47,858 nucleotides of DNA from a virus: positions 1-47,858 of IMG/VR virus record IMGVR_UViG_3300003309_000009. The stretch is one strand, 5' to 3'. A program made the translations under genes and the position numbers. Below, in pieces: positions 88-43,589 of this stretch (its first letter is position 1; each line of letters begins with the position of its first letter). The notes beneath the pieces are model-generated. The model had not been told where the DNA came from and made no database searches. It saw only the letters and a list, made by a program, of their open reading frames with translations.

Positions 88-107
88 TGATACTTCCTAC
101 AGCATCA
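88..107 (-). promoter_or_regulatory. GUAGGA-loop leader hairpin
   Basis: UGAUGCU-GUAGGA-AGUAUCA. Confidence 0.8.
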
Positions 108-112
108 CATTA

Positions 113-138
113 GTAATATGTCATTAATAAATCATTGA
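113..138 (-). promoter_or_regulatory. Putative early promoter
   Basis: TCAATGATT-N8-ACATATTAC; resembles the phiKZ early motif TATATTAC. Confidence 0.75.
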
Positions 139-147
139 ATACAAAAA

Positions 148-175
148 ATAAAGGGATCCCGAAGGATCCCTTTAT
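148..175 (-). terminator. Intrinsic terminator
   Basis: ATAAAGGGATCC-TTCG-GGATCCCTTTAT plus T-run, directly after the stop of 180..1400. Confidence 0.9.
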
Positions 176-179
176 AGGT

Positions 180-1400
180 TTATTGATTATCGATAGCGTG
201 CTTAGCTAGATCAAAGATATTTAAGCCAGCGAGGTTATGACAGCAGATTGCCGTGTCAGGATACCAGCCCAGTGTCCAGACACCACCATTAGATTTAATT
301 GTTTCTAAATTCACTTCACCCACAAGATCAGTATCTTCAGGGTAGCCGATAGAAAGCATATCAAACACATCATCAAATGGAGTCCAGTGAATTTCTAGCG
401 AAACACTGTACTGCGGAAGCTCCAAACTTTTCAAATATGATAGTCCTACCAAATCAAACACACCATCACGAGTATCTGATACATATTCTTTACCACCGAC
501 GTTAACTATCCAAAAACTATTATTTTGAATACATTTAGTAACGCAGTTTCCGTCAAGAACAACGCTCCCTTTTGATTTGCTCAAAAGTCGACTAGCTTCC
601 TTTTCCGGAGCACCATAACTATTCTTATGATCATTATGCGTTATGCTCAATGGTCCGAGTGGTCGAATGTCCGGAGCCTTATTTTCATCAAGGCTCTTTA
701 TTGACTGTGATGTGGGTCCGACCATAATGACATTTGCTTTTCTAAAGAATACTGCAAAGTCAGCAAAGTCATCACCGGCCAAAGCAGTTAGTACCGGAGA
801 GGCTTCAACAGTTCGGATAACTTTAAAAAAGACCTCTGTGTCCCCAACCATCCCAATGAGCTTTTTATGGAGAACTTTGATATCACCTTCACAAAGTTCT
901 TTCTGACGCTCAATGAAAACACGAAATACATTGACATTATGCTGGTTAATACCAGTAGCGAAATGTTCTGAAATATCAACACTCCCAACATTGGCTTCCA
1001 GTATATTGTTAGTCATAGTGGATAAAACTTTTTCTGCATTGCGCGCCGAAAGTCTTGCAAAGTCAAAGATATCATCAAACTCTTCCAAGTCTTCAATATC
1101 AACTTCGGTTAAACCCTGATCTTCACCAAGGACTAACATACTCACAGCACTACTTAAACGTTCACCAAGAAGACGCAGGTTGTCTTCCGTTAGCGCACCG
1201 TTTAAACTATCACGATTTAATAACATACGTGCCATCTTAGTTAAGCGATTTACGTTGTTTAATAAATCAGGGTAGTTTTGCAACGGACCAAGGATACCAG
1301 CTGCCTTATAATTGAAGACATCAAGCATTTCTTTCCATTGTAGGCTATTAAACTCACTAAGAGTAAAGGCCTTATTATAGTCTAAATTGAGCTCGCTCAT
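180..1400 (-). CDS. Hypothetical protein, N-terminus paralogous to 1639..2400
   Basis: 406-aa ORF, AAGGA RBS; shared N-terminal pattern. Confidence 0.85.
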   Translation of the reverse strand: MSELNLDYNKAFTLSEFNSLQWKEMLDVFNYKAAGILGPLQNYPDLLNNVNRLTKMARMLLNRDSLNGALTEDNLRLLGERLSSAVSMLVLGEDQGLTEVDIEDLEEFDDIFDFARLSARNAEKVLSTMTNNILEANVGSVDISEHFATGINQHNVNVFRVFIERQKELCEGDIKVLHKKLIGMVGDTEVFFKVIRTVEASPVLTALAGDDFADFAVFFRKANVIMVGPTSQSIKSLDENKAPDIRPLGPLSITHNDHKNSYGAPEKEASRLLSKSKGSVVLDGNCVTKCIQNNSFWIVNVGGKEYVSDTRDGVFDLVGLSYLKSLELPQYSVSLEIHWTPFDDVFDMLSIGYPEDTDLVGEVNLETIKSNGGVWTLGWYPDTAICCHNLAGLNIFDLAKHAIDNQ

Positions 1401-1440
1401 TGTTTTATTCCTTACAAGGGGTTTTAGATAAATAAATGAG

Positions 1441-1464
1441 GACAGTACATCCTACAATACTGTC
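1441..1464 (-). promoter_or_regulatory. GUAGGA-loop leader hairpin
   Basis: GACAGUAU-U-GUAGGA-U-GUACUGUC. Confidence 0.75.
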
Positions 1465-1478
1465 TCCCATGGATTACG

Positions 1479-1628
1479 TTATTTTTGTGGACGAGGGATG
1501 ATACCGGCGGACTGCAACATACGAAGACGCTCGCGGGTTTCTTCATCGAAAGATTTCACCGTTTTAGATCGTGGTATTATACCACGATCTAGTCGTCCCT
1601 TTTTACGCGGTACGTATTTTTCATACAT
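1479..1628 (-). CDS. Small basic hypothetical protein (49 aa)
   Basis: ATG at 1628 just after the upstream stop, AGGT RBS; K/R-rich with GIIPR twice. Confidence 0.65.
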   Translation of the reverse strand: MYEKYVPRKKGRLDRGIIPRSKTVKSFDEETRERLRMLQSAGIIPRPQK

Positions 1629-1638
1629 AGCGCAATAC

Positions 1639-2400
1639 CTACGCAAGAACGCGGTAGAAGTTAAAGACGTTTGCCAAATCCGGATCAATCACATTGTCAC
1701 TAAAAGCTTCGATGCGATCAATCAGGTCTACCATTCTATCAAGGTCATGGCAACGATCTTTAAGCTCATCATGGTAGTCTTTTTCATTAGCACCACACCA
1801 GAGCATTAGCTCTTCAAAGTAATGATTAAGGACATGAATAGTTTCTTCATTGACCACATCATCATTGAAGATGACTAATGGACCTGCGCCAGTCATGGCG
1901 AGACGCTTAGCTTTATGCTTCGCCTTACAAGCACCGCCGGTGATTGTCCTAAGTACATCTGATAGACCGCGTGGAATGTCATCAGGTTTACCAATTAGTA
2001 GGTCATTCATCGCCATCAGTCCGGGAGGTGGATTCTGAATAGCACGAGACGCACTCTCACTAAATAGAGTATCATCTGCGGTGATAACGTCATCAAACTC
2101 TACCAAGATAATACTCTGCCTGCCATCATAACCTAATAGCGATTCTTCGGTAAGCTCGATTACGCGCTTACCAATCTGAGACATGTTGTCCTCAGATAGA
2201 ATTTCCGAAGGCTTCGTGTTTACTTCAAAAAGAATATATACAAGGCACTTAGTGGTAACACCCAGCATGGTCATATCTTTTAATTTAGGTAAAATCTTAC
2301 TTACCTTGTGATTAACAACAGCCGTCAGTTGATCTTTTGATAAAGACTTTAAGTCTTCCAAAGAATAGTTACAGTCAAGTGATTTTTCAGTATCGCTCAT
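1639..2400 (-). CDS. Hypothetical protein, paralogue of 180..1400
   Basis: 253-aa ORF, AGGAG RBS. Confidence 0.85.
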   Translation of the reverse strand: MSDTEKSLDCNYSLEDLKSLSKDQLTAVVNHKVSKILPKLKDMTMLGVTTKCLVYILFEVNTKPSEILSEDNMSQIGKRVIELTEESLLGYDGRQSIILVEFDDVITADDTLFSESASRAIQNPPPGLMAMNDLLIGKPDDIPRGLSDVLRTITGGACKAKHKAKRLAMTGAGPLVIFNDDVVNEETIHVLNHYFEELMLWCGANEKDYHDELKDRCHDLDRMVDLIDRIEAFSDNVIDPDLANVFNFYRVLA

Positions 2401-2406
2401 TGTTTT

Positions 2407-2423
2407 ATTACTCCTACAGTAAT
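2407..2423 (-). promoter_or_regulatory. GUAGGA hairpin overlapping the Shine-Dalgarno
   Basis: AUUAC-UGUAGGA-GUAAU, 6 nt before the ATG at 2400. Confidence 0.65.
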
Positions 2424-2442
2424 TTAATTGTTTATTGACTTG

Positions 2443-2889
2443 CTAAGAAGCCAGATTTAGATGATGTACGTTATTATCTTGCATATCGCCCGTATATTTT
2501 TTTAATTCCGACAATAACTTCTCAGCAGTTACCTTCCCCGCGCCCAAAGTAGTGCCGTCGGCAGATTTATCAGCTAACAGTCCCCAAATTCTAGCCTGTC
2601 GAATTTTATCTACAACAGATCCTTCTAATACGACATCTAGATCCTCGGTTGTACTACCGTAGGCTGCAATCCATGAAAGTCTATCATTGACCGCAATCAA
2701 ACTATCGCGTCTTAACATACCAGCGAGATCCATCGCATCTACCGTGCTTTCACGAACTAACTTTTGTAGCGCCAGTAGGTAGGTACAAAGGCCGCCCGTG
2801 GTTTTCAAAAGTTTTATACTCGATTTGATATCTTTGTTAATTAAACAACAAATATCATCATTCCATGTATCTTTACCTAATATTGTCAT
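2443..2889 (-). CDS. Hypothetical protein
   Basis: 148-aa ORF with GGAG RBS, first gene after the promoter at 2947-2972. Confidence 0.8.
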   Translation of the reverse strand: MTILGKDTWNDDICCLINKDIKSSIKLLKTTGGLCTYLLALQKLVRESTVDAMDLAGMLRRDSLIAVNDRLSWIAAYGSTTEDLDVVLEGSVVDKIRQARIWGLLADKSADGTTLGAGKVTAEKLLSELKKYTGDMQDNNVHHLNLAS

Positions 2890-2920
2890 AGCAATTCTCC
2901 AGTTTTTCCATTTAATATTT

Positions 2921-2940
2921 AGACAGTTCCTACACCATCC
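2921..2940 (-). promoter_or_regulatory. GUAGGA-loop leader hairpin
   Basis: GGAUGGU-GUAGGA-ACUGUCU (three G-U pairs). Confidence 0.7.
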
Positions 2941-2946
2941 ATTAGG

Positions 2947-2972
2947 GTAATATGTATTTTTAGAATCACTGA
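2947..2972 (-). promoter_or_regulatory. Putative early promoter
   Basis: TCAGTGATT-N8-ACATATTAC. Confidence 0.75.
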
Positions 2973-2980
2973 TTGCGATA

Positions 2981-3010
2981 TAATGGCTGTCCTGGTGAGG
3001 ACAGCCATTA
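2981..3010 (-). terminator. Stem-loop, probable terminator of the spike transcript
   Basis: 13-bp perfect stem, 4-nt loop; weak U-tract. Confidence 0.65.
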
Positions 3011-3061
3011 GTTATTTAAATGCTAGGTCGAATATCCATGATAGACACCCCCATTACCAGT

Positions 3062-3181
3062 TTAACTCATTGGCACGCTTAATAATGCGTTTAATTGCTT
3101 CACGTCTAGAACGTTTTCCCTTGTTTCAAATTTAAGAACTTTAGCAGATTCTTTTTCTTTTACACTCTTAGACTTATCCAT
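3062..3181 (-). CDS. Small basic protein (39 aa as written; possibly frameshifted)
   Basis: AGAGGA RBS and ATG at 3181; an alternative -1-frame tail ends at 3054. Confidence 0.5.
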   Translation of the reverse strand: MDKSKSVKEKESAKVLKFETRENVLDVKQLNALLSVPMS

Positions 3182-3194
3182 CGGAATCCTCTTA

Positions 3195-4340
3195 TTAAGT
3201 ATCGATTAAATGTAGGTCTTGCGTTACATTGTTCCAGGTAGGACTCTGTAAGTCCGATGCGGTAACCGGCTTTGTACAAGTTAACGGCATGTTAATGACA
3301 GCACTGGCACCTCCACCACCCGATCCTGGTGCTGCTGATATTCCGCCTAAGATAGCCACCGCCCCTGTTAAACCAATTGATGGTGATGTAACAGTATAGG
3401 TGCCGCTGGCTACAACATTCCCAGTTGTACAGGTTAAGCTATAACTCTGCGTAGTAATCTCATAATTACTACTTGCTGTCATACTAATGTTTTCTGCAGT
3501 TACAGTATAATTACCAGTAGTAGCTTCTGTTCTACTACCTTTAACAGTTTCAGACTTATCACCATCCACATGTAAAGTATCGTTACCTTGGATTGTAGTA
3601 GTTCTATCACCTCCTACAATCTCAGTATAATTTCTACCAACCTCAACTAACATATCCCGGTTACATTTAGTATGAATATCTCTAGGTGCAAAGGCAATGA
3701 TATCTTCTTTATCTAAACTAAGGTGAGTATTATCTTTATTTCTAAAGGTAATCTTAGTATTCTTAGTGTCTAACTGGATAATGTTTCCTACATCATCACT
3801 AGCTGTGATATGCCCCTTACCAGTGTTAATTTGAATCTTGTAACGACAGTGCTCGCCATTATCTTTACTGGTATGAAGAGTGATCATTTGAGAAATTGTA
3901 TCAACGGTCAAATAGTAGTGATTATTGTCGTTAATCTCAATATCTGTATCACTACCTTCAGAACTAGCGTTCCAACTCCATACAATGCGTTCTCCGCGTC
4001 TTTTCTCATCATCCCTACCCAATGGACTCCACCAGTACCTTTCGCTGTTACAGGTCGTATAGATCATTACCTGCTCACCTGCTTTTACATTAGGTGCAGT
4101 GCGTCTATTTGTTTCACCAACCCATTCAGCTAGAACACTCATTCCAGAATCAAGTTCTATAGAGAATACCTTTCCAGTACTATCAGTAACCTTCCGATTA
4201 ATAGGTGATACTTTATCAGTAATGGTGCCTTCGAAGAAAGGAAACATTTCATAGGGGAAGACCTCAATCATCTTACTATCGTCTTCTTTATCTGCCGCCA
4301 CAATACCAATAGAGTAAGGGCGAAAATTAGATATTTCCAT
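3195..4340 (-). CDS. Baseplate central spike, gp5/VgrG-like (phiKZ gp164-like)
   Basis: N-terminal SIGIVAADK and APNVKAGEQV OB-fold-like region; C-terminal 8-residue VxG repeats (VGRNYTEIVGGDRTTTIQGNDTLHVDGD) typical of the gp5 beta-helix. Confidence 0.85.
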   Translation of the reverse strand: MEISNFRPYSIGIVAADKEDDSKMIEVFPYEMFPFFEGTITDKVSPINRKVTDSTGKVFSIELDSGMSVLAEWVGETNRRTAPNVKAGEQVMIYTTCNSERYWWSPLGRDDEKRRGERIVWSWNASSEGSDTDIEINDNNHYYLTVDTISQMITLHTSKDNGEHCRYKIQINTGKGHITASDDVGNIIQLDTKNTKITFRNKDNTHLSLDKEDIIAFAPRDIHTKCNRDMLVEVGRNYTEIVGGDRTTTIQGNDTLHVDGDKSETVKGSRTEATTGNYTVTAENISMTASSNYEITTQSYSLTCTTGNVVASGTYTVTSPSIGLTGAVAILGGISAAPGSGGGGASAVINMPLTCTKPVTASDLQSPTWNNVTQDLHLIDT

Positions 4341-4395
4341 AGGTGTTCCACATCAATTATTTTTCGTATACGATTTGCTTTTTTGGTGAAAAAAA

Positions 4396-4422
4396 AAATA
4401 GAGTCCCATTGGGACTCTATTT
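4396..4422 (-). terminator. Intrinsic terminator
   Basis: AAATAGAGTCCC-N3-GGGACTCTATTT plus a long T-run. Confidence 0.9.
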
Positions 4423-4424
4423 GG

Positions 4425-5777
4425 TTAAGGAAAATCTACGTATTGCATTTCACCATCAAAAGTATCATACACTTCTTTCAGCGTTTCAACATCGGCTTCG
4501 ATGTTAGAAATATCAATAGAGTCTACAGCACCTGCGTTCTTTGGTAAGGTATCCAAAGCGACACATGTCTCTAATTTGATGCAGAGAGAAGTTTTTGACT
4601 TAACATGTTCCAATAGAGAGATGAGTTTTTCCATAATGGCGTTATAGGTAGATGAAAAGAATAACCAGATGGATGTTCTTTTACCAGGCTCTAACACATT
4701 ATAAAACCCCTTCATAGCAGACAATGTCACTAGGGTCTGTTGGAAAACTTTATACTCAGGAACATACTCACCTTCCGACTCAGGACTTTCGGCCTTCAAT
4801 GTCAGAAGATGCTGAACATTATGGAGTTCCATAAGTAGCACCTCTGACATGGCTGTAACCGCCCCGGTAGCGTGTGTGGATAAGGTGATATGCGCGCTAC
4901 TATACATCTCACAAATGAGTCTGCTGGCAGTCAGCTTCTTAGTCACCACATCGGGAAAAATTACAAACCGCGCTGTCCCTAAAAGGGACTCATGTCCATC
5001 ATCTATATCTAAAGATAGTATTTCTTTACAACCATCTGCAATATAGCTCTTCGTTGACAATGTTGCTAAGCTCCGCACTCTTCCGAAGTTTAAAAATTCA
5101 GTCACCGTGTAATCGTAGATAGTCGTTGCAAATACACTCAATAGATTACAAAAGGCAACCGCAACTGGACAACCAACAGTATCCTTTTGATAATTACCTT
5201 TTTCAAGGATTTCTTTCTTGAAGTAAACATATTCGTCGACCATGCAAACTTCCAAGGTATCTGCATCGAGAATTCTACTCGCTAAATCATTCATCTCGGC
5301 CACTAGTCTTAAAGAAGACTTCTCTCCGCCAATTGTAAATTCAGTAGCAGAGTTAATATCGGTATTAACATGAATGACTGGTCGTGTGTTAGCCTGTACA
5401 AACTGGAGGTCATTTGATACCGCATCCTTTGTAACCAGCGTTAAGTTTCGACTAATGTATTTAGCAGTACCAACTTTACTTTCGATTAGCATAGCAAAAA
5501 GCTCATTTGTCGTAAATGACTTCCCTAAAAGCTTGCGTGATTCAATTTCAGTTACAGCCATATCCTTAATGACATTAAGGACTTCATTGTATTCCTTGGT
5601 TAGCTTACGACCCAATAACTGAAGTAACTCATTAAGCTCTTCGATATCTATTCCACTCGGAATTGATATTTCCTCTAGAGACTTATGAGACTCTAAAGAG
5701 TATTGGTGAATCGATTTACCAATTTCCTCAGACGATAAACTGTCGTCTGATAAAAGTTTCTTTAAATAACTATTCAT
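4425..5777 (-). CDS. Hypothetical protein
   Basis: 450-aa ORF, AAGGA RBS; no recognisable domain. Confidence 0.85.
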   Translation of the reverse strand: MNSYLKKLLSDDSLSSEEIGKSIHQYSLESHKSLEEISIPSGIDIEELNELLQLLGRKLTKEYNEVLNVIKDMAVTEIESRKLLGKSFTTNELFAMLIESKVGTAKYISRNLTLVTKDAVSNDLQFVQANTRPVIHVNTDINSATEFTIGGEKSSLRLVAEMNDLASRILDADTLEVCMVDEYVYFKKEILEKGNYQKDTVGCPVAVAFCNLLSVFATTIYDYTVTEFLNFGRVRSLATLSTKSYIADGCKEILSLDIDDGHESLLGTARFVIFPDVVTKKLTASRLICEMYSSAHITLSTHATGAVTAMSEVLLMELHNVQHLLTLKAESPESEGEYVPEYKVFQQTLVTLSAMKGFYNVLEPGKRTSIWLFFSSTYNAIMEKLISLLEHVKSKTSLCIKLETCVALDTLPKNAGAVDSIDISNIEADVETLKEVYDTFDGEMQYVDFP

Positions 5778-5808
5778 GTTTATTTCCTTCCAGGGTTATA
5801 AAAAAATT

Positions 5809-5829
5809 AGGGGGTTTGTTAGACCCCCT
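5809..5829 (-). terminator. Putative intra-operon terminator
   Basis: AGGGGGT...ACCCCCT stem followed by AA and a T-run. Confidence 0.7.
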
Positions 5830-5838
5830 CGTAATAGA

Positions 5839-6198
5839 CTAAAGCTCGTTTACAATTTTACGGATCATAATAGAGCCATTTAACACTGCAACACCAGTAA
5901 TTACAGTTCTGTGATTCTCAATGAACTCTTCACCTTGTAACTCCGTCAACAGGACTTTAGTACATTCACCAAGGTCATGCGGCTCAACACCGCTATGAAT
6001 TTTGGTAACGACCGAGTCAAACCATTTCTGAAGTACGTGGGTGATCTTCTCACCCACTTCCAAGATTTCTGAGAAATCAACACCACCGCTATCATCATTT
6101 GTTTCCAGAAGCGTACTGGCGGATGATTCAATATCTTCCATAGTAACTTCATTAGACGACAGGGTGTCGAAGATCCTTTGTAACTTATCAACCAGCAT
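5839..6198 (-). CDS. Hypothetical acidic protein
   Basis: 119-aa ORF, TAAGGA RBS. Confidence 0.8.
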   Translation of the reverse strand: MLVDKLQRIFDTLSSNEVTMEDIESSASTLLETNDDSGGVDFSEILEVGEKITHVLQKWFDSVVTKIHSGVEPHDLGECTKVLLTELQGEEFIENHRTVITGVAVLNGSIMIRKIVNEL

Positions 6199-6208
6199 AA
6201 TCTATTCC

Positions 6209-6850
6209 TTAAGCGGCCTTTTCTTCACGCATTGCTTTCTCAGCAAGGATTTCCAAAACCGTTGCCGATACTAAATCAGTCAAAGGGTTTTGAGGGTCAG
6301 CGATACCTGAGATTGTGGTGGTTTCATCACCTTCACGATTATAAACCACACGGTAAGTGTAGCTGCATTCGGATGGTTTTTTCTCACCATTAACATTATC
6401 AAGCATTCGGTAAACTGTACTACTTGTATGTTCAGTTTCAAGTTCTACAAGTTCAACATATTCAAGAAGACCATGTTCTTCCAAAATCATTCGATATTGT
6501 TTAAGAATCTCAGCGTCTTCGACAGGAGCACCTTTGCCGATTTTTAAATAAGATCCATCAAGGGCCCAATTAATTCCTTCATCAAGGTATCTTAGCGCAT
6601 CTTCAACTACCTCAGTAAATTTCAACTGACTACTATATGTATCAGAAAAAACACGATCAATGTTTTTAAGTTGTACAAGCATTTCACCAGTATCAAAGTC
6701 GTTATCAGATTGTCCCACGATAAACCAGCTATAGCCATCTTCACCACGTGGGCCAAGAAGAACATCGATAAGGGCGTATTCTCGAGCCTTATCTTCAATA
6801 GCATTTAATTTACGGTTTAGCTTTAATAGTTTTAGTTGTTGTTCACTCAT
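6209..6850 (-). CDS. Hypothetical protein
   Basis: 213-aa ORF, AGGAG RBS; possible paralogue of 6883..7497. Confidence 0.85.
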   Translation of the reverse strand: MSEQQLKLLKLNRKLNAIEDKAREYALIDVLLGPRGEDGYSWFIVGQSDNDFDTGEMLVQLKNIDRVFSDTYSSQLKFTEVVEDALRYLDEGINWALDGSYLKIGKGAPVEDAEILKQYRMILEEHGLLEYVELVELETEHTSSTVYRMLDNVNGEKKPSECSYTYRVVYNREGDETTTISGIADPQNPLTDLVSATVLEILAEKAMREEKAA

Positions 6851-6852
6851 GT

Positions 6853-6871
6853 CTATTCTCCTACTGAATAG
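6853..6871 (-). promoter_or_regulatory. GUAGGA hairpin overlapping the Shine-Dalgarno
   Basis: CUAUUC-AGUAGGA-GAAUAG, 2 nt before the ATG at 6850. Confidence 0.7.
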
Positions 6872-6882
6872 TTTTATTAAGT

Positions 6883-7497: not shown

Positions 7498-8006
7498 GAT
7501 TCTGACTCCAGTAAATCACCAATGGTTTTCGGTGTATTTAGGTTATAGTAATTAAGACTGGCATTGAATAATTCTTCTGCCCGCTTATCATTTTTGTCAG
7601 TGCCATCGGCCATCATCACGGATCCTTTGAAATTATTCAACTGACCTTCGGTGATACCTTGTAGGACCAGCATGACCGTACGATAAGCTAATGTATCTCT
7701 TACATTTAATGGTAGTTCCGGATCTAAGGAAGTTAGAAAGTTATCAGCCTTACTAATCTTCTCAGTCAGATAACCATTAGGATAATCAATTAAGTGATCC
7801 GCATGTTCATACAGGCGTACCATTGTACTTGTGAAGACACCAAGGGCATTTGAAAACTCAGTACTGTGCCACGAGGTTTTCAACTCCTCTTCATTGTCTA
7901 AAATGATTACCGCTAACGCAATGGTTGTCGTAATCACAGCTTCTGCTGATTTTTCATCAGCAATAAACAGGTTATCAAGTAACCCGTTAAAATCAAATTT
8001 CATCAT
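7494..8006 (-). CDS. Hypothetical protein
   Basis: 170-aa ORF, AAGGA RBS. Confidence 0.8.
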   Translation of the reverse strand: MMKFDFNGLLDNLFIADEKSAEAVITTTIALAVIILDNEEELKTSWHSTEFSNALGVFTSTMVRLYEHADHLIDYPNGYLTEKISKADNFLTSLDPELPLNVRDTLAYRTVMLVLQGITEGQLNNFKGSVMMADGTDKNDKRAEELFNASLNYYNLNTPKTIGDLLESES

Positions 8007-8036
8007 AGCTCATTTCCTTTAGGTTTTAATAAATAA

Positions 8037-8054
8037 ACTCATTCCTACATGAGT
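8037..8054 (-). promoter_or_regulatory. GUAGGA-loop leader hairpin
   Basis: ACUCAU-GUAGGA-AUGAGU, perfect stem. Confidence 0.8.
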
Positions 8055-8087
8055 ATAGTGGGAGCCAGAGCGACTCCCATCAAAAAT

Positions 8088-8113
8088 ATAATATATAAAT
8101 AACATTTTACTGA
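8088..8113 (-). promoter_or_regulatory. Putative early promoter (variant)
   Basis: TCAGTAAAA-N8-ATATATTAT, same spacing as the other copies. Confidence 0.6.
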
Positions 8114-8116
8114 TTA

Positions 8117-8398: not shown

Positions 8399-8399
8399 T

Positions 8400-10835
8400 T
8401 TATTTATACTCCAATGTTACATGGTTATTGTGAATACTCGGAATAGATATATTTCGACTATCCATTACTAAACACTCGTGGTTAGATAAACCACCTTGTA
8501 CTTCAGCATAATGGTTAATCATAAAGATCTGACTACATTGTCCCGCATCTAGTAGAGTCTTAATATATCTTTGTAAATTCTCCCTATGCATTATATCAAA
8601 GCGAATACCAAGTTCATCTAAGAAGAGCGGATAGTCTTGTAGACCCAAATATTGTCTAGCAATTAATACAAAGCACCAGTTGATAAATTCTTTTTGGCCC
8701 TCAGAACCAAGGCTGATGTCGCCAACCCGACTTCCCTCAACATCCATAGGAAATTTATAATCCATATTCCCCTTATCATTAAGACAAGGTAATACCTCCA
8801 GTCCAACAGTCCAAACCTTAGAGATGATATCATTGATAGAATCAATGTACGTAGTGGTAAAGCCATTCATCTGATCAGCTATTTCACCTCTAATTGGACC
8901 GAGTGCATCAATGCACAGTGATAACACTTCGCCATTTTCTTTAAGTTCAACGAGATCCTTCCTAACATTCTCAAGTGAATTGATAGCCATATCTCTTTTC
9001 TGAACAATGGTTCTAAGATGAGATAACTCATCATAAAGGGATTCTTTTAGTTCTTGGGCATAGTTCTCCATAGAGACCTTAGATAGCTTAATCAGATCAT
9101 CTTGTAAACTATCTAAGATAGCAGCGGCTTGTTCTACCATTCTACTATACTGAACATAGTTTATTTTAAACTTATCATAGTACTCTAGTTTCTTATTGAT
9201 ATTCTCAATCTCACACTGGGTAACTTCGAGATCCAACTCCATCTCTTGCACGGTATGGATGTTATCACCTAACAACTCAATAGACTTAATTGCATTTTCA
9301 ATACGCTCAGCCTCAAGCTCTAGTGAGGATTGCTTGGTATCTAATTCAGCCTCAGTGCGAAGTTTAATACAGTGATTATTAAATCCTGTAAAGTTTCCAA
9401 TGATTACAGAGTTAGTCCATTCCTCAGACCAAATTAAGTTATTACCAGTGGTTCTTCTTAGACTATCTATTCTTCTACAAAGAGAAATAAACTCATCGGC
9501 TAGTCCAACTTCTTTTAGAGATTCATCAAATTTACCTTTGCCAATCTCCAGTGTTTTGAGAAGATCATCTTTCTTTGTAAGAAGCTCAGCTTTATACTCT
9601 TCAGGGTTCCTACCGCGTACATTAAAACGATAATCACATTTAGGACAGGTGTGTTCACCATCTTCCTCAACATGTGTAATTTCATTTTCAATGCGGTTAA
9701 TCTTATCTTTAACCATAGTGAGCTTGAATTCTATCTCTTCATGTATTTTGTTAATGGATTCTATCTCCTCACGAGTATAGACCTTACCATCATAGTAACC
9801 AGCAATCTCCCTGACACCAGTAATAACTTCATCACAAAGTTTGAGTGCAATGGTAGGTCGACTGAATAAGATCTCACGATCCAATGTAGACAAAGTACCC
9901 TTTATACCCGCTAACTCATTTTTAAGGCCTTCCGGCGTCATCTGCTTTTCACTTAATGAGTCCGTCACCTCTCTAGCTTGGAAAATCTTTTCTGTAAGAT
10001 CTAATCGTCTTTCGTTAAGTGTCTGACGAATACCATTAAACTTACCAATGGCCTCATTTAGATCAGAGAGGTCCTTGATACCTTCGTCTAAAAGATACAT
10101 AGGTTTATACCGATCCCACTCCTTTACCATGGTATTTAACCTAGACTGCTTGCTGATAATGGTATTCTCAATATCATCAACAGTGCCATGTTCAGAGTTA
10201 CCAATGAAGGGTATAATCTTCTGAATACGATCCTCAACACCTTTAATAAGTTCATCAATATTCTCTTCAACCATCGCATTTTCTACAGATAGATGAAGTT
10301 CTTCTTCACGTAACTTCAGATGCTTAGTAGCCCCCTGAGAATCGCGTAACATGACTTTTAGTTGATCAAACACCTTAAGCCCGTAGCTCAGCTCCAGTGG
10401 AGATATCTCCATTAACACTTCTTTACGCTTAGCAGGTGTCATTTCGGTAAAGTTTACCTGACCTACTAATAACTTGTGGATATTATCCGTATAATTAAAT
10501 TCTCTAGTAACAAGGTCACGTTGTTCAGCAATACTTTTACTCTGGTTAAGCTGCTCACCATTTTTATAAAAGAGATGTTCGCCACCACCAGACCCTTTAA
10601 ACTCAGAACTAAGCTTGTACTGATTACCAGAAAACTCGATAAAGATTGTCTTATACCCACCTTTACCATAGTTAGCTCTAACTGCAGGCATTGGATTAAG
10701 TTCTAATAATAGGCTTGACTTACCACAGCCGTTAGTCCCCAATATAGTTTGCATAGTTGCAGTAGGTTCATAGTCAATCTTTTCTATGGTTGTAAGTGGT
10801 TTGTATTTGTTTAATATTAAACGTGTAATTAACAT
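8400..10835 (-). CDS. sbcC: SbcC/Rad50-like ATPase
   Basis: Walker A GTNGCGKS, long coiled coil with CPKC zinc hook, signature-like GSEGQ, Walker B LFLDE, H-loop INH. Confidence 0.93.
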   Translation of the reverse strand: MLITRLILNKYKPLTTIEKIDYEPTATMQTILGTNGCGKSSLLLELNPMPAVRANYGKGGYKTIFIEFSGNQYKLSSEFKGSGGGEHLFYKNGEQLNQSKSIAEQRDLVTREFNYTDNIHKLLVGQVNFTEMTPAKRKEVLMEISPLELSYGLKVFDQLKVMLRDSQGATKHLKLREEELHLSVENAMVEENIDELIKGVEDRIQKIIPFIGNSEHGTVDDIENTIISKQSRLNTMVKEWDRYKPMYLLDEGIKDLSDLNEAIGKFNGIRQTLNERRLDLTEKIFQAREVTDSLSEKQMTPEGLKNELAGIKGTLSTLDREILFSRPTIALKLCDEVITGVREIAGYYDGKVYTREEIESINKIHEEIEFKLTMVKDKINRIENEITHVEEDGEHTCPKCDYRFNVRGRNPEEYKAELLTKKDDLLKTLEIGKGKFDESLKEVGLADEFISLCRRIDSLRRTTGNNLIWSEEWTNSVIIGNFTGFNNHCIKLRTEAELDTKQSSLELEAERIENAIKSIELLGDNIHTVQEMELDLEVTQCEIENINKKLEYYDKFKINYVQYSRMVEQAAAILDSLQDDLIKLSKVSMENYAQELKESLYDELSHLRTIVQKRDMAINSLENVRKDLVELKENGEVLSLCIDALGPIRGEIADQMNGFTTTYIDSINDIISKVWTVGLEVLPCLNDKGNMDYKFPMDVEGSRVGDISLGSEGQKEFINWCFVLIARQYLGLQDYPLFLDELGIRFDIMHRENLQRYIKTLLDAGQCSQIFMINHYAEVQGGLSNHECLVMDSRNISIPSIHNNHVTLEYK

Positions 10836-10923: not shown

Positions 10924-11835
10924 TTAGAAGTTTTCTTCAATGATTTTAATTAGCATCTGATCCACTAGATCGCGAATCTCAAGCATAAAGAAAGGACTTA
11001 CATTAGTGCCATGGAGGACATCGTTTTTGAGGTTGTATTCCGGTAGATTAGCAGTATTAAGTTTACCACTAAATTTAGCAACATAATCTTCACGATTAGA
11101 TTTATACTCCCAGTCCTCGATATCACCGGCATTAGGCTTAACCTTAGTAACTAACTTGAGTAGTTCTAATGTACCCTTTGGCTTTTTAACCTGATGAAAG
11201 TGACCAGGGAACCATCCACAGTATCCCGGTACAATTCGCATGCCTACTTTATTCTTACTACCTTTAATCGAAGCTATCGCTGTAGTGTTACGACTACGCA
11301 CACGCATAAAGTCCAGACCCATTAACTTTAATGTATCTTCAACTATTTGATAGTAGCCTTCATATAACTCCGCTGTCCTACCGCTGTCTTCAATATTAGC
11401 AACGTACTTACCGAATAAAGATAGGTCATTTAATGATTCAAGAATATCAGCTTTATTCATATGACCTTTAAGCAAAGAATAATCTAAGAGTGCTTCTTCT
11501 AGTTGCGCTCGCTTATCAGTTGGAATAAGGTCATCAGGAACAGATTTTACTTCTTTTAATAACTTAGGAATAAAGTCGTTAACTAGATCCATGAATTCAC
11601 TGTTGTAAATTTCATTGGTTAGTTTTTTAACAGCACTTTTCTTAGTATTAAATAACTTATTGAATAAACCCTCTGTACCTACATCGACATCGTATTTATA
11701 GTCTGGCGAGAGAATACGCACTGCGTTTTCAACAGCAAGTGATATATCAGCCTCAGGGTTATTTTTCAAATGCTCATTAGCAATAGTAACACCATTTATA
11801 GCGGTATTTAAAATTAAAAGATCGTCTAGATTCAT
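10924..11835 (-). CDS. Putative internal head protein with cleaved propeptide
   Basis: 303 aa; VGTE-GLF at about residue 56 fits the S/A/G-X-E prohead protease site of phiKZ-like phages; lies in a structural operon. Confidence 0.55.
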   Translation of the reverse strand: MNLDDLLILNTAINGVTIANEHLKNNPEADISLAVENAVRILSPDYKYDVDVGTEGLFNKLFNTKKSAVKKLTNEIYNSEFMDLVNDFIPKLLKEVKSVPDDLIPTDKRAQLEEALLDYSLLKGHMNKADILESLNDLSLFGKYVANIEDSGRTAELYEGYYQIVEDTLKLMGLDFMRVRSRNTTAIASIKGSKNKVGMRIVPGYCGWFPGHFHQVKKPKGTLELLKLVTKVKPNAGDIEDWEYKSNREDYVAKFSGKLNTANLPEYNLKNDVLHGTNVSPFFMLEIRDLVDQMLIKIIEENF

Positions 11836-36756: not shown

Positions 36757-36783
36757 ATAAATTAATAAGAAGGAAAATATGTT

Positions 36784-37281: not shown

Positions 37282-37291
37282 GGAGAATAAT

Positions 37292-37873: not shown

Positions 37874-37886
37874 AGGTTTTTAAATC

Positions 37887-38375: not shown

Positions 38376-38377
38376 TT

Positions 38378-38407
38378 ATAATAGAATCCCTTTTGGGATT
38401 CTATTAT
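38378..38407 (+). terminator. Intrinsic terminator
   Basis: ATAATAGAATCCC-TTTT-GGGATTCTATTAT plus TTT. Confidence 0.85.
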
Positions 38408-38481
38408 TTTGCAACCTAGGTTAGCAATCTTATGTTCTAATAATAGAACTAATTTAGCTAAATTAATTTGAGGTAAGACAA

Positions 38482-38847
38482 ATGTCTGAAAAGAAACCAA
38501 ATGCTCTTATGGGCTTTTTACTAGCAATCCAGGGTTACTTCCGTGACGGCAGTTATAAGTCAGATGGTATCCTTGTCGCATTAGCTGGTTTAGTATTGAC
38601 CTATGGTCAACAATGGCTGATGTCGGTTAACATGGAAGAAGTTGCAAGCTTTCGCATCGTGATGGTACTAGCGTTAGCTTCATTATTTCCAATCCTTGGT
38701 CGTATCATCCTGCGTGTTATGGATATGTTAATCGGTGCCAACTTTAAAGAAGACTGGAAATTGATCTCTCCAGAAATTCGAATGCAGTATTACATGGTGC
38801 GATTACTGGCCGTATTTATTGGTATGGCATTAATTATTTCTGGTTAG
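38482..38847 (+). CDS. Membrane protein, holin candidate
   Basis: About three hydrophobic helices; directly upstream of the muralytic enzyme; GAGGT RBS. Confidence 0.65.
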   Translation: MSEKKPNALMGFLLAIQGYFRDGSYKSDGILVALAGLVLTYGQQWLMSVNMEEVASFRIVMVLALASLFPILGRIILRVMDMLIGANFKEDWKLISPEIRMQYYMVRLLAVFIGMALIISG

Positions 38848-38873
38848 ACAACTTAGATTATTCTAACTGAGAT

Positions 38874-39689
38874 ATGTTAAAGCCATATTTTAAATTTATT
38901 GTACCTGTTTTAATCCTACTGATCATTGAGTCGGTGAGTGCTATGGGAACTACCCCGCCAGTTACTCCAGAACTTGATACAGTGGTCTTAGAGCAGGATG
39001 TTGAAGAAAACCTTCCTACCACTAAGGTTGTGGTAGAAAACCTCTCAGAGGCCGTTACAGAAGCTCCTCTTGGATCTATTGAAGAGACAGAGGCGGTAGA
39101 GCAACAAGTGGAAGAGGAGGTTCAAGTTGTAGTGCAGACACCGGCTAAAATTGGTCGATATGAAACGCGCTACAATGACTCTTTTCGTAAGTACACAAAA
39201 ATGTATCTACCCATGCATTCGTGGCACCTTTTGGCAGCTCAGTGTTATCAGGAGTCGTTACTCCAGCCAGATGCTGTTTCGCCAGTAGGGGCTATGGGCC
39301 TTTGTCAATTTATGCCAGGTACCTGGAAAGATGTTTCACGGCAACTAAAATTTCCAGAGGATGCTACAGCGTTTGATCCAGATTTTGCAGTAATGGCGGC
39401 AGCTTATTATAACTACCGCTTACGCAAGACATGGAAGGCAGAGCGCCCTGAGTTTGATAGAATGAATTTAGTATTTGCAAGCTATAATGCAGGTAGTGGT
39501 CACCTGATCAATGCCCAGAAATTATGCTTTGCTGCTAAGAAGAATGGCGATGATCATCTACAATGTAACTTACACAGCGATATTGAAGCCTTTCTTCATC
39601 TAATCACAGGGCATCATTCTAAAGAAACGAAAACGTATGTACGTCGCATAAGACGCTGGGAGAAAGAGTTATTAATTCTTCAACCTTGA
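38874..39689 (+). CDS. Lytic transglycosylase (SLT family), probable endolysin
   Basis: QES catalytic Glu, AVSPVGAMGLCQFMPGTW, ASYNAG, ETKTYV; N-terminal signal-like segment. Confidence 0.92.
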   Translation: MLKPYFKFIVPVLILLIIESVSAMGTTPPVTPELDTVVLEQDVEENLPTTKVVVENLSEAVTEAPLGSIEETEAVEQQVEEEVQVVVQTPAKIGRYETRYNDSFRKYTKMYLPMHSWHLLAAQCYQESLLQPDAVSPVGAMGLCQFMPGTWKDVSRQLKFPEDATAFDPDFAVMAAAYYNYRLRKTWKAERPEFDRMNLVFASYNAGSGHLINAQKLCFAAKKNGDDHLQCNLHSDIEAFLHLITGHHSKETKTYVRRIRRWEKELLILQP

Positions 39690-39701
39690 TTTACTATATC
39701 T

Positions 39702-39727
39702 AGAGGATAGCTTAATTGCTATCCTCT
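39702..39727 (+). terminator. Intrinsic terminator
   Basis: AGAGGATAGC-N6-GCTATCCTCT plus TTTT. Confidence 0.85.
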
Positions 39728-39742
39728 TTTTAGGCAAAAAAA

Positions 39743-39768
39743 ATAGAGAGCCCCATGGGGCTCTCTAT
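39743..39768 (-). terminator. Intrinsic terminator (perfect 26-bp palindrome)
   Basis: ATAGAGAGCCCCATGGGGCTCTCTAT plus T-run on the minus strand. Confidence 0.9.
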
Positions 39769-39784
39769 ACCGAGATGGTTATAA

Positions 39785-41659
39785 TTAAAACTCACCGATC
39801 TCTTTTGTTTCAGGATCAAACCATTCCACCTTACCAGCACGAGTCCTTGATTTACGCATACTAGTCTTCATGCTATTAACAGAACTGAGCTTATAGCCAA
39901 GACTAATAATAACACGATCGTTCTCACAAAATACCGAGTGGAAGCAGTAGTTTTCAAACTGTTGCTTATTTACAACGTTAAAACGACCACTATGTTCCGA
40001 CAGTGTTTTTATGAGATCATCATCGCTGCCTACAGGAGAGACAATAAAGCAGACGTTTGGACGGGTAACTTTTTTCAAACAGTCATCCTTGAAACTATAG
40101 CTATAATACTCCGGAGGAGTAGTACTCATTGTCGGTGCGCAAGACTTTAAGATGTGAGAAAGATAGCGATGATCGGTATCGATGTCGATTACTACCTTAA
40201 CATCTTTACCATTCGCCCGGATGTAGTTATAGTAAACTTCATCTTCTTCACGATCCTCCCGTGGTAGCACTATCAAATCGCGGTAATCATCTACTGCTAA
40301 CTCAACCACACGAGCTAGGCAATGCGAAGCTCTTGGTAGTGCTATATATGTAGATGGCGTTAATTCTGTTAAGTAATTAACAACCTGCTGATTACCCCAG
40401 CCATACTTAATAGCCTGAATGGTTAGATAGCGGACAATCGCATAGGTCACACGAATATCATCCTTACCAAATAGTTTGCCTTCACAAAGTGCTTTGATAT
40501 ACGGTAAACCAGATGGACTATTAGCATACGGAGCAAAGATCTCAATGAATGCATTCAGTAGGTCCTGATAAGGAAGCTCAGGATTTTTCGGTTGATAAGC
40601 ATCCTCTGGCACATAGAACTTCAATGTTTCTACACCCAGGTTAAGACGATGGAATAAACCAATGCTGATTTTATCACCGCCGTTAATCTTAACACCGTTG
40701 GAATGTACCATGCAGTGAATAGGTGAATCACCTTTTAACTGACTCACCTGGTGGATCGCGCCTAGCGCTACAGCTACATCTGTAAGAAACTTATTACGGG
40801 AAATTACCGCATCTGTGATAATGTTCTTACCGCGTTTTACAAACTCACGGAAGTCATCAAAATCAGACCATTTATCTTTCCAATTTTCATAAATGTCCCA
40901 TAGACATGCTGCTGTAGAATCTACCTGCTTTTCCAACTCAAACCCACAAAGATCTAGGATGACGTTACCACCACTGATCGTAATAAGTTCAGCTAGATCA
41001 CTTTCGCTATATAGCGAATGGCCACGCACTGGATGGATTACTATTGGATCGTTATCATCTAGGGAATTCCAATCTATCAGACGGATTTCAGAGGGGATAT
41101 AATCCAATAGCTTGCTAATGGCTTTACCATCGTTACCACGACGGGTAGCAGCCTTGATGATATCAACTAACTGCTGTACGGTTTTGGGATTTCTCATATT
41201 AATTTCAATACGATCGATCTCTATAGCATCATCCAGTAGCCACTTGATAAATAGTGGTAGATTGGTGAAGCTGGTCACTTCATTGGAATCGATGAAACAT
41301 TGCACCGAGTCTATGTTAATTTTCACAACATATGCTGACGATACGATGATGTTATCACCAATGGTTATTACACGATCATTTGCTAAAGTGATCTTTTCAA
41401 CTATGTGCGACTGCTGCTCTTCTGATAGAGTGGTCTTTTTGAAATCTTTAATGATACCACATTCAATAACTGAGTAGTCGCTCACTACCGCCCATAAGAA
41501 ATCTTTAATGACTTCTTTATCATCCAACGGTGAATATAAAGTATTCATTCGCTTAACTACATCACCTTTGAACTTTTCAGAACAGTTCGGGTTACTTAAT
41601 GTATGGAGGTAGGTGACAAACTCAGCTACCAGATGTTGCATATTAATATTATGATTCAT
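39785..41659 (-). CDS. Hypothetical protein (624 aa)
   Basis: Start moved to ATG 41659 (AAGGA RBS); the upstream in-frame part overlaps the leader hairpin. Confidence 0.85.
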   Translation of the reverse strand: MNHNINMQHLVAEFVTYLHTLSNPNCSEKFKGDVVKRMNTLYSPLDDKEVIKDFLWAVVSDYSVIECGIIKDFKKTTLSEEQQSHIVEKITLANDRVITIGDNIIVSSAYVVKINIDSVQCFIDSNEVTSFTNLPLFIKWLLDDAIEIDRIEINMRNPKTVQQLVDIIKAATRRGNDGKAISKLLDYIPSEIRLIDWNSLDDNDPIVIHPVRGHSLYSESDLAELITISGGNVILDLCGFELEKQVDSTAACLWDIYENWKDKWSDFDDFREFVKRGKNIITDAVISRNKFLTDVAVALGAIHQVSQLKGDSPIHCMVHSNGVKINGGDKISIGLFHRLNLGVETLKFYVPEDAYQPKNPELPYQDLLNAFIEIFAPYANSPSGLPYIKALCEGKLFGKDDIRVTYAIVRYLTIQAIKYGWGNQQVVNYLTELTPSTYIALPRASHCLARVVELAVDDYRDLIVLPREDREEDEVYYNYIRANGKDVKVVIDIDTDHRYLSHILKSCAPTMSTTPPEYYSYSFKDDCLKKVTRPNVCFIVSPVGSDDDLIKTLSEHSGRFNVVNKQQFENYCFHSVFCENDRVIISLGYKLSSVNSMKTSMRKSRTRAGKVEWFDPETKEIGEF

Positions 41660-41694
41660 AGGAATATTCCTTTTAAGGGTTTTTAATTTACACG

Positions 41695-41718
41695 TGTAGT
41701 ACTTCCTACAGTACCACA
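41695..41718 (-). promoter_or_regulatory. GUAGGA-loop leader hairpin
   Basis: UGUGGUACU-GUAGGA-AGUACUACA. Confidence 0.8.
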
Positions 41719-41794
41719 TTAGTAATATGTCATTAATAAATCATTGAATACAAAAAAATAAAGGGATCCTTCGGGATCCCTTTATAGGTTTATT
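41700..41794 (-). repeat. Terminator-promoter-leader hairpin cassette, copy 2
   Basis: Near-identical to 91-184; promoter motif at 41722-41747, terminator at 41758-41785. Confidence 0.95.
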
Positions 41795-43541
41795 AAATGA
41801 AGATAAAACGATTCTCGATCTCGGTACCAGCGACCTTCATCTTCAAACGACTAACAAATTTCTTTGAATAGCCTTTTTCGATAATAACAATTCTAGAAAA
41901 TGTTTTTAAATACTCCCAAGATTCTAGCTTACCAGATGTAATGGTCGTACTGGTCGATTGATGCCATTCACAATCTTCCCAGGCTTTACCAAGTACCCCA
42001 GAGAGTTTATCTTGTTCCGCAGGCTTTAGATAATAGCTCACAGGTTTAGATTTATCCATATAACTACTATAGATAGCTAATACCTTAGGCTCTTTAGAAG
42101 TCTTTTGGTATTTAATAACACCTGTATAACCTATCTGCTCTAACTTATCACGGATTAACCAATTCCAATTTTGATCAATGTTTTCAGTTGAGCAAACGGC
42201 ATTGGTTACAATGTGAACCTCGTCATAGTGAAATAAGTCTACTAGACCTTCTTCTGGTACTCTTCCTGAAATGAAAGCGTCCCCGCATAAACCACGAGTA
42301 TTAAGAAGCTCCTGTGTGATAGGTTGATTTTCATCCCACGGTTTATGATCGATCATCAGAATACGCTTGGCATCACCAGGCAATGATTCGGCATTGCGAC
42401 TCACAGACATGTGCGTAACCCCTGCATCTACTACCCCTTGAGCATCAACATCGCCTGTTGCGGCTTTATAGATGTCAGTGGTTAGTCTGTCAAGAAGCTC
42501 AGCCAGCCCTTCCTTTCTAGCAATGATTACATTACCATCTGTAATAAGATTACAGAGTAGGCGAGGTGGCTGCTCTGTTCGTCCAGTCAAATCAGGCCAG
42601 TAGTCTAAAGCCCGTCTAAAGAGAGCTAGAAGGTGGTTGTACATTGTACCATTGGTATTTTCAAACTGTGTAACATCAAGGAATAGTGCTGGGCGATAAC
42701 CATCATATTGATCACAAGTGATCAAATGGGAGATAATGTGATTAGCAATGGCTACATGGTCGATCATACGATGTGTATTAGCATCTAAAGACCAGCCGAT
42801 AACATTACTCTGGTTAGCTCTACACAAGTTATAAACGTCGGTAAAAGTTCCAGTTGCATCAAGTGTTTTATTGGTATAAATAAGATCACCAATGTTAATA
42901 TCACTGCCATGGGACATTGAAGATGTAACCCTAACATTAATATCTCTATGATTATCCATACCTTTTAGAATGCTTGTTATTACAGGTAGTGTAATGCTAC
43001 TAATAGATTCTAAATCAATAACCACATCAGTAGCAGAATGACGATATACTTCTTGTAAAATTAATTCTACATAACTACGATGTGGGTCACGATAAGGTTG
43101 ATGTTTATGGACGTTCGTTGTAAATAAAACACCGTTAGCATTTAAAATAAAATTAATTTCATTACGAGGAGATCGGTTCTCTACCCCCGTACTTCTTTCC
43201 ATGTGAACGGGAATTACCAAGTTAGGAATCTCAATAGACTCTACAATGGTATTACCTAATGGATAGTTCATACTGAAATTAATTTTCGTTATACCAACGT
43301 TTGGGTTTGTAAGATTTGAGTTTGTAAGGCCTACAAGAACATATTGTAAAATATTCCAGAAACCACCGTCGGATTTATTCTGAATTTCATTCAATATTAC
43401 ACCGGCATTTAGTTTAACATCATCAGGATGCAAAGGATTTAAAATTACCTTCAACTGTTCTACAGTCTCGCCAACGAATGGCTCGTGGGAATACCATATG
43501 GCTCGCTGAAAAGGACGCTGATGTGGGTTATTTTGATACAT
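41793..43541 (-). CDS. Hypothetical protein (582 aa)
   Basis: Long ORF, TAAGGA RBS. Confidence 0.85.
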   Translation of the reverse strand: MYQNNPHQRPFQRAIWYSHEPFVGETVEQLKVILNPLHPDDVKLNAGVILNEIQNKSDGGFWNILQYVLVGLTNSNLTNPNVGITKINFSMNYPLGNTIVESIEIPNLVIPVHMERSTGVENRSPRNEINFILNANGVLFTTNVHKHQPYRDPHRSYVELILQEVYRHSATDVVIDLESISSITLPVITSILKGMDNHRDINVRVTSSMSHGSDINIGDLIYTNKTLDATGTFTDVYNLCRANQSNVIGWSLDANTHRMIDHVAIANHIISHLITCDQYDGYRPALFLDVTQFENTNGTMYNHLLALFRRALDYWPDLTGRTEQPPRLLCNLITDGNVIIARKEGLAELLDRLTTDIYKAATGDVDAQGVVDAGVTHMSVSRNAESLPGDAKRILMIDHKPWDENQPITQELLNTRGLCGDAFISGRVPEEGLVDLFHYDEVHIVTNAVCSTENIDQNWNWLIRDKLEQIGYTGVIKYQKTSKEPKVLAIYSSYMDKSKPVSYYLKPAEQDKLSGVLGKAWEDCEWHQSTSTTITSGKLESWEYLKTFSRIVIIEKGYSKKFVSRLKMKVAGTEIENRFIFI

Positions 43542-43565
43542 AGTTTTTCCTTATTGAGGGTTTTG

Positions 43566-43589
43566 TTGGTAGTCTCCTACGACTACCAA
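43566..43589 (-). promoter_or_regulatory. GUAGGA-loop leader hairpin
   Basis: UUGGUAGUC-GUAGGA-GACUACCAA, perfect 9-bp stem overlapping the upstream stop codon. Confidence 0.85.

Follow-up and report, generated by a model that had tools for sequence, protein, structure and literature searches.

GUAGGA-loop RNA hairpins ahead of accessory genes, in probable early leaders, of an uncultured phiKZ-like phage

Introduction

How the first messages get stabilised, exported and preferentially translated is an open puzzle for nucleus-forming jumbo phages. The DNA stretch described here bears on it and raises a question of its own: why do unrelated accessory genes follow stem-loops that share one loop sequence, GUAGGA? 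The stretch (the window) is the first 47.9 kb of the 128,299-bp IMG/VR record IMGVR_UViG_3300003309_000009 (the contig). The initial annotation listed eight minus-strand GUAGGA hairpins in it, placed before non-core genes, and proposed a regulon acting at the RNA level.

The source is uncultured, and PHROG matches show it to be a phiKZ-like (Chimalliviridae), nucleus-forming jumbo phage. Matched proteins include the portal, virion proteins, the gp131-135-like fibre family, a phiKZ-type RNase H, the major head protein and an RNA polymerase beta subunit. The same phage is also present on a 221,665-bp contig of coral metagenome SRR2008167. About 90 of the 118 open reading frames (ORFs) lie on the minus strand.

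Enrichment, loop invariance and covariation

All eight hairpins fold, with coordinates agreeing within 1 nt of those first listed and stems of 5–9 bp. GUAGGA is an exact hexaloop in five (87, 2920, 8037, 41695 and 43566) and is accompanied by 1–2 additional loop bases in three (1441, 2407 and 6853). With stems of at least 5 bp, the whole contig holds 13 such hairpins on the minus strand and 2 on the plus strand, among them three extra strong copies at contig positions 94086–94104, 103098–103121 and 119842–119863. Intergenic DNA makes up roughly 5% of the sequence, yet holds 11 of the 15. The remaining four are intragenic, with stems of 5–6 bp, and their number is about what chance predicts.

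The hairpins are strongly enriched over shuffled controls. Stems of at least 6 bp enclose 10 of the 45 minus-strand GTAGGA sites of the contig, against 0.92 expected (2000 flank shuffles, largest value 5). Stems of at least 8 bp enclose seven of the 45, against 0.14 expected. GTAGGA is the commonest hexamer among the hairpin loops of the genome. A wider survey covered 156 kb, about 70% of this one genome (the contig plus about 28 kb read from the 221-kb ENA contig). Exact GTAGGA was found in such hairpins at 10 of 49 sites, and loops with one mismatch at 20 of 609 and 13 of 615, the background level of about 3%. The additional 28 kb yielded zero further exact copies and one GUAGGG variant. As a natural control, 80 loci of related jumbo phages (1.65 Mb) hold such hairpins at 10 of 383 GTAGGA sites (2.6%), none of the 10 in leader-like context.

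The only strong one-mismatch variant is this GUAGGG loop. It sits on a 9-bp stem in a 3' untranslated region (L099:12455-12506), directly before the GC-rich terminator that closes the three-gene operon behind hp87.

The stems drift while the loop stays fixed. Over eight in-register copies, 95.3% of alignment cells are paired against 56% when shuffled, and none of 500 shuffles reaches 95.3%; these eight copies were picked for pairing, and the enrichment over shuffles is the unbiased statistic. Both sides vary at all eight stem pairs. Sliding the register lowers pairing to 27–55%. A fixed loop on drifting stems fits one common trans-acting reader, as the initial annotation had supposed.

The fold belongs to the sense RNA, because 9 of the 81 pairs are G-U and the summed folding energy is lower on the sense strand (−77.0 kcal/mol) than on the antisense strand (−45.6 kcal/mol). 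The minus-strand bias of the copies is by itself weak evidence, since most genes lie on that strand. The claim of an element acting as sense-strand RNA is thus upheld. Rfam returned 0 matches in the window at the gathering score.

Each element is a single hairpin of 18–24 nt. By their predicted context the copies fall into three classes: five at a putative transcription start (+1), four internal or intercistronic, and two with the Shine–Dalgarno sequence (SD) in the loop. Coordinates are collected in Table 1.

Early-type promoter context

Listing all intergenic regions and aligning them on a conserved octamer yielded a bipartite element in 13 copies: AATCA (−34 to −30), an AT-rich spacer, (C/T)A(T/C)ATTA(C/T) (−14 to −7), N6, and G. 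In short form it reads AATCA...CATATTAC-N6-G. Early promoters of phiKZ share the layout, with TATATTAC-N6-G at about 24 sites. Promoters of the virion RNA polymerase (vRNAP) of phiKZ-like phages have AT-rich boxes and a start 6 nt downstream (PMC5312081, PMC7598289); the rule for AR9 and phiKZ is given in PMC5312081. With a conserved AT-rich box around −10 and six nucleotides from there to a G, the 13-copy element is laid out like a phiKZ/AR9 vRNAP early promoter. Transcription starts are predicted here from this homology of layout, and the timing is presumably early.

Most promoter copies come after a GC-rich hairpin with a T-run. One stands directly ahead of a 690-aa homologue of the beta subunit of the non-virion RNA polymerase (nvRNAP; phrog_3295, E=7.5e-171), an early gene class in phiKZ. 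The CATATTAC subtype stands before ORFs of no known family (ORFans). The TACATTAT subtype, which has no hairpin, stands before conserved genes such as the nvRNAP subunit, phrog_3209 and phrog_7727.

Five GUAGGA hairpins (87, 2920, 41695, 103098 and 119842) start exactly at the predicted +1, with the loop at +7 to +12 or +8 to +13. A perfect hairpin begins at 6 of the 13 predicted starts, whereas only 7.7% of the G positions overall have one (P=2e-4). GUAGGA is the loop in five of those six. Two further promoters would open their transcripts with unstructured GUAGGA (127409) or GUAGGU (45456). The idea that the hairpins belong to early mRNA thereby gains a putative promoter of the phiKZ early type for five copies. 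An N4-type hairpin promoter was considered and rejected: the hairpin lies at or after the predicted +1, not upstream of it, and is stable on the sense strand only.

Internal copies and ribosome-binding sites

Both promoter boxes are absent at hp1441, hp43566 and hp94086. Of these, hp43566 and hp94086 overlap the stop codon of the preceding gene and are thus intercistronic. The fourth internal copy is hp8037; in the P8081 transcript it is preceded by 27 nt that include another hairpin.

In hp2407 and hp6853 the loop presents the real SD of the gene. These two are set apart, as members of a commoner class of SD-in-loop hairpins in this genome. They use the same GUAGGAG, and the SD of a gene at contig 68.2 kb is an unstructured GUAGGA. 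GUAGGA(G) is therefore the real SD of three genes, and ribosomes must read the sequence. That the motif is not simply an SD, as first claimed, holds for the nine copies that stand apart from the ribosome-binding site (RBS) and does not extend to the copies at 2407 and 6853.

Other small AU-rich hairpins with the SD in the loop occur at contig 120352–120371, 94512–94530, 90302–90320, 80128–80145 and 65533–65549; in some of them the 3' arm includes the start codon.

In nine of nine leader copies a second GGA, that of the SD AAGGAA, follows 14–38 nt downstream. Several hairpins are followed by an RBS module, AAAACCC(U)U..AAGGAA..AUG (Table 1). The string AAAACCC(U)U-N2-5-AAGGAA is found also at contig 5778–5838, 70184–70259, 71373–71517, 94060–94085 and 127321–127350. 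The CCU of the module is able to pair with AGG, either in the SD or in the GUAGGA loop, and could form a small SD-masking structure.

The hairpins do not have the make-up of intrinsic terminators: U-rich tails occur only at hp1441 and hp8037, and the stems are AU-rich (−3 to −13 kcal/mol). A search for an RNA presenting UCCUAC, the complement of the loop, was negative: this sequence is carried only by two intragenic hairpins, both weak and of 5 bp. A start–stop mini-ORF (NUG-UAG), present in 7 of 11 copies, was set aside, as no SD lies ahead of it. A non-coding gap at contig 65533–65675 contains, on the plus strand, the anti-SD-like CACCUCCUAAC, which could pair with the loop UAGGA(G) over 5–6 bp, and with ordinary SDs equally.

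Downstream genes and the duplicated cassette

Proteins encoded behind the hairpins have no Pfam or PHROGs match, except one AAA ATPase. They are mutually unrelated, and the possibility that they are paralogues was rejected. No hairpin was seen before recognisable structural genes or before the nvRNAP subunit gene. The statement that the hairpins mark accessory genes is borne out to this extent.

Behind hp103098 comes first an ORF for a hydrophobic peptide of 31 residues (L102:15985-16080, minus strand), followed by a 203-aa ORFan. A 69-aa basic ORF (window 1479–1688, minus strand), at most a putative gene, shares sequence with the end of the 253-aa gene, and its stop is 15 nt from hp1441.

One cassette is duplicated 41.6 kb apart, with hairpin copies at 87 and 41695 (window 30–185 and 41640–41795). 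From the stop region via the terminator and promoter to four bases beyond the loop the copies are identical, bar the following differences, and after that point they are unrelated. The terminator loop is inverted (UUCG against CGAA), and the 5' arms differ at two positions. Homology stops inside the 3' arm of the hairpin. The outer 3' arms are non-homologous, but pairing with the respective 5' arm is kept in both copies. The compensatory changes first reported between the two stems amount to one double compensatory change; three others are single changes in which pairing is kept through wobble. The boundary suggests that the conserved loop region may serve as a crossover point.

Table 1. Hairpins, putative promoters and associated signals (window coordinates unless marked; the +1 positions are predicted)
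Feature	Position	Strand	Description
hp87	87..108	−	GUAGGA hexaloop; 6 bp from predicted +1 (106), 8 bp including 2 bp upstream
P106	106..140	−	Upstream box 136–140, CATATTAC 113–120, N6, G+1 106
Terminator ahead of P106	148..175	−	GC-rich hairpin and T-run; start of duplicated cassette
hp1441	1441..1464	−	8-nt loop U-GUAGGA-U; 8 bp; U-rich tail; no upstream promoter boxes; 15 nt past stop of 69-aa ORF
hp2407	2407..2423	−	Loop GUAGGAG is SD of 253-aa gene; weak, 5 bp; SD-in-loop class
hp2920	2920..2941	−	GUAGGA hexaloop; 7 bp from predicted +1 (2940)
P2940	2940..2974	−	AATCA 2970–2974, CATATTAC 2947–2954, G+1 2940; preceded by terminator 2981–3010
hp6853	6853..6871	−	Loop A-GUAGGA is SD of 213-aa gene; 6 bp; SD-in-loop class
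hp8037	8037..8054	−	GUAGGA hexaloop; 6 bp; +28 to +45 of P8081 transcript, after hairpin at 8060–8078
P8081	8081..8115	−	AATCA 8111–8115, TATATTAT 8088–8095, G+1 8081
RBS module	41657..41684; also 1398–1425, 8004–8027, 43539–43564	−	AAAACCC(U)U..AAGGAA..AUG after several hairpins
hp41695	41695..41718	−	GUAGGA hexaloop; 6 bp from predicted +1 (41715), 9 bp in all
Promoter at 41715	41715..41749	−	CATATTAC 41722–41729, G+1 41715
Second cassette copy	41715..41785	−	Terminator about 41758–41785
hp43566	43566..43589	−	GUAGGA hexaloop; 9 bp; intercistronic; no promoter boxes; 5' arm includes stop codon of 613-aa gene
P45456	45456..45490	−	TACATTAT-N6-G; predicted transcript opens GUAGGU, unstructured
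+1 positions outside the window	contig 59758, 71434, 94545, 103118, 110334, 115008, 119861, 127409

Distribution among relatives

Close relatives were not recovered. Megablast of 8 kb against phage records gave nothing, and IMG/VR contains no close relative of the portal protein. A search of 5.8 billion proteins matched the portal only to the phage itself and to proteins of at most 38% identity. A 582-aa gene has no relative in JGI metagenomes. A pattern scan of IMG/VR for ACATATTAC-N12/13-GTAGGA gave 92 single matches, none leader-like; those with stems lie in coding-like sequence.

Three relatives at 35–38% portal identity (L003, L105 and L106) hold GTAGGA hairpins only at background, as do the 80 further loci. 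Relatives at this distance keep the promoter type and sometimes have a +1 hairpin with other loops, such as the 10-bp hairpin from +1 in L106. In phiKZ a +1 hairpin is found at only 4–5 of about 24 early promoters, with no common loop. Among the sequences compared, the GUAGGA loop is specific to one lineage.

L106 (38% portal identity) holds CATATTAC and TACATTAT promoters that are each followed by the same leader of about 45 nt containing AAUCCUAC (6168–6240 and 10381–10450). Its third promoter precedes the 10-bp hairpin (11274–11320).

Discussion

The reading tentatively favoured is a cis-acting stem-loop of early leaders that stabilises the mRNA and shows an SD-like loop to a trans-acting, ribosome-recruiting reader. 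The structure and its strand specificity, the fixed loop, the placement relative to promoters and RBSs and the unrelatedness of the genes behind it are firmly established, whereas we infer both the reader and the direction of the effect. The hairpin would act within the 5' leader of accessory transcription units of the early type. In five units the message would begin fully base-paired at the predicted first transcribed base of a vRNAP-type promoter, a state known to block 5'-end-dependent decay by RppH and RNase E in Gram-negative hosts. The invariant loop, with its SD core AGGA 14–38 nt upstream of the true ribosome site, would be the docking site for one shared reader, most likely the 30S subunit with S1, otherwise a dedicated RNA-binding protein. 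The net effect would be that early accessory mRNAs, which are made ahead of any phage protein, are stabilised and preferentially translated. For messages made so early, a shield carried by the RNA itself is plausible, and a shared reader would be needed because capping explains neither the internal copies nor the six invariant loop bases.

Stem-loops at the very 5' end, with no unpaired overhang, stabilise mRNA in ompA (hp1) and in the T7 gene 10 leader, and the promoter-linked copies would have the same arrangement. SD-like 5' stabilisers also exist: the STAB-SD of cryIIIA and the aprE leader carry an SD-like sequence far upstream of the real RBS, as here. STAB-SD is single-stranded and Gram-positive, and stabilisation by the GUAGGA hairpin is so far a proposal. 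To our knowledge, these 5' stabilisers have no invariant loop common to many genes, unlike the GUAGGA hairpins. The Dip protein of phiKZ blocks RNase E (PMC4980113), so that such phages contend with this enzyme. The mRNAs of phiKZ are enriched on 30S and 70S particles, for reasons not known (PMC8545117). A stabilising, ribosome-recruiting leader is favoured because of this enrichment, because the loop contains AGGA, and because the same heptamer works as an SD.

Several points weigh against this reading. The start sites are taken from promoter homology alone, and pairing reaches 1–3 bp upstream of the predicted +1 in each of the five copies linked to a promoter; transcription may truly start a little further upstream, or else the upstream pairs matter only in read-through RNA. 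The copies at 1441, 8037, 43566 and 94086 are not at a 5' end, and because of these four, capping cannot be all that the element does. The invariant loop bases G1 and U2 would not pair with the anti-SD. The usual SD of the phage is AAGGA, not UAGGA, and pairing of the anti-SD with a loop of six bases would be strained. Neither phiKZ nor any of the relatives examined has the motif, which thus lacks support across species and is known from a single genome, of which about 70% was surveyed.

A host protein of the CsrA/RsmA type was among the readers first suggested. Its dimer would bridge the loop GGA and the GGA of the downstream SD, and would repress or protect the message according to host physiology. 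The loop GGA stands directly on the stem with an A before it, a second GGA follows in all nine leader copies at 14–38 nt, within the reported bridging range of the dimer, and the arrangement works for 5'-terminal and intercistronic copies alike. Known CsrA sites likewise have a loop GGA directly on the stem and a second GGA in the SD, and lower-affinity AGGA-type loops are known ligands (PMC4005645). The high-affinity form is the hexaloop A(N)GGAX (PMC4005645), whereas the register here is GU-AGGA, with GGA at positions 4–6, without N or X and with two further invariant bases at the 5' side. That invariance of G1 and U2 has no explanation under CsrA, the enriched copies are all exactly GUAGGA with one-mismatch loops at background, and the second site is trivial in that any SD contains GGA. 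No CsrA gene was found in the 128 kb of phage sequence searched (about 47% of the genome). The proposal is unlikely. There is a similarly small chance that the motif is a shut-off tag, by which a RegB-/RegA-like phage endoribonuclease or translational repressor inactivates the early accessory mRNAs when the middle programme starts; a cut in the loop would also strip the protective 5' hairpin. A dedicated protein would account for six invariant bases, and three copies place the motif in the SD itself. Targets of T4 RegB, also named in the initial annotation, are comparable early mRNA tags in intergenic and translation-initiation regions, with an unpaired GGA that is recognised best when the next base is constrained (PMC3014915), as it is here by the first stem pair. 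They consist of GGAG and an A-rich tail, not GUAGGA. Only 3–4 of 13 loops continue with G, the 3' neighbours being stem bases; the A-rich RegB/S1 consensus GGAGRAYARAA is absent; and the same 128 kb contain no homologue of REGB_T4 (PF10715).

It is quite improbable that GUAGGA is a lineage-specific address tag read by a virion-delivered protein or by the vRNAP complex; such a reader would pass the first accessory transcripts on to host ribosomes when they leave the enclosed early compartment, or would at a later stage mark them for timed destruction. ChmC is unsupported as the reader: it binds phage mRNAs without a motif and downstream of start codons (PMC11077065). Export as such, one of the roles first listed, is equally unsupported. 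At the DNA level, GTAGGA and its flanks might be a downstream vRNAP promoter element or a crossover point, with the fold incidental. GTAGGA is indeed fixed at +7 to +12 or +8 to +13 in the five copies with a promoter, the duplicated cassette has its boundary within the hairpin, and in T4-type phages cassettes are shuffled in this way by PeSL (promoter-early stem-loop) units (PMC2839356, PMC4122927). This is very unlikely: four good copies lack promoter boxes; on the other strand the nine G-U pairs turn into A-C mismatches and the energy is far weaker, which argues against a cruciform or a template-strand hairpin; and a signal of sequence only leaves the compensatory stem changes unexplained. 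Lambda boxB and the MS2/PP7 coat-protein operators are short hairpins whose loop sequence is read while the stem sequence is free, with loops that differ from GUAGGA. A boxB-like role, in which a phage factor on the nascent hairpin brings about read-through of the GC-rich terminators flanking the cassettes, agrees with a small conserved-loop hairpin just downstream of early promoters and with strong terminators between units. Lambda boxB works with boxA and the host RNA polymerase. Here no boxA-like partner and no N-like gene were recognised, the polymerase is a divergent phage enzyme, intercistronic and SD-loop copies misfit, and several units are single-gene and end at the next terminator; antitermination, another early suggestion, is highly improbable. 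Least credible of all is the absence of any shared function, the hairpins being relics of cassette duplication and chance folds. Two copies are clearly one duplicated cassette, AT-rich spacers fold readily, and four promoter-linked 5' arms share the start UGUGAU/UGGAUGG. Against this stand an enrichment of tenfold relative both to flank shuffles and to natural DNA of jumbo phages, the same loop on at least six unrelated stems, and one-mismatch loops that are unenriched, the pattern expected if selection holds the loop.

The closest known arrangement is that of PeSL, in which terminator stem-loop, early promoter and SD form units repeated before unrelated ORFans in plastic regions (PMC2839356, PMC4122927). 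Here too one cassette is duplicated, and the two copies cease to be homologous where the gene-specific part begins. In PeSL the stem-loop is a terminator placed upstream of a sigma-70 promoter. The promoter described here is instead of the phiKZ vRNAP type, and a second hairpin with an invariant loop lies downstream of the start and occurs also without any promoter. The idea of a portable regulatory cassette is thus extended to vRNAP promoters. Accessory early units are tagged and core early units (nvRNAP) are not. If the address-tag reading were true, the hairpins would define a post-transcriptional regulon by which a nucleus-forming phage controls its early genes specifically. The six-base loop on about ten unrelated early accessory genes offers a compact, mutable handle for finding the reader and for testing 5'-end protection.

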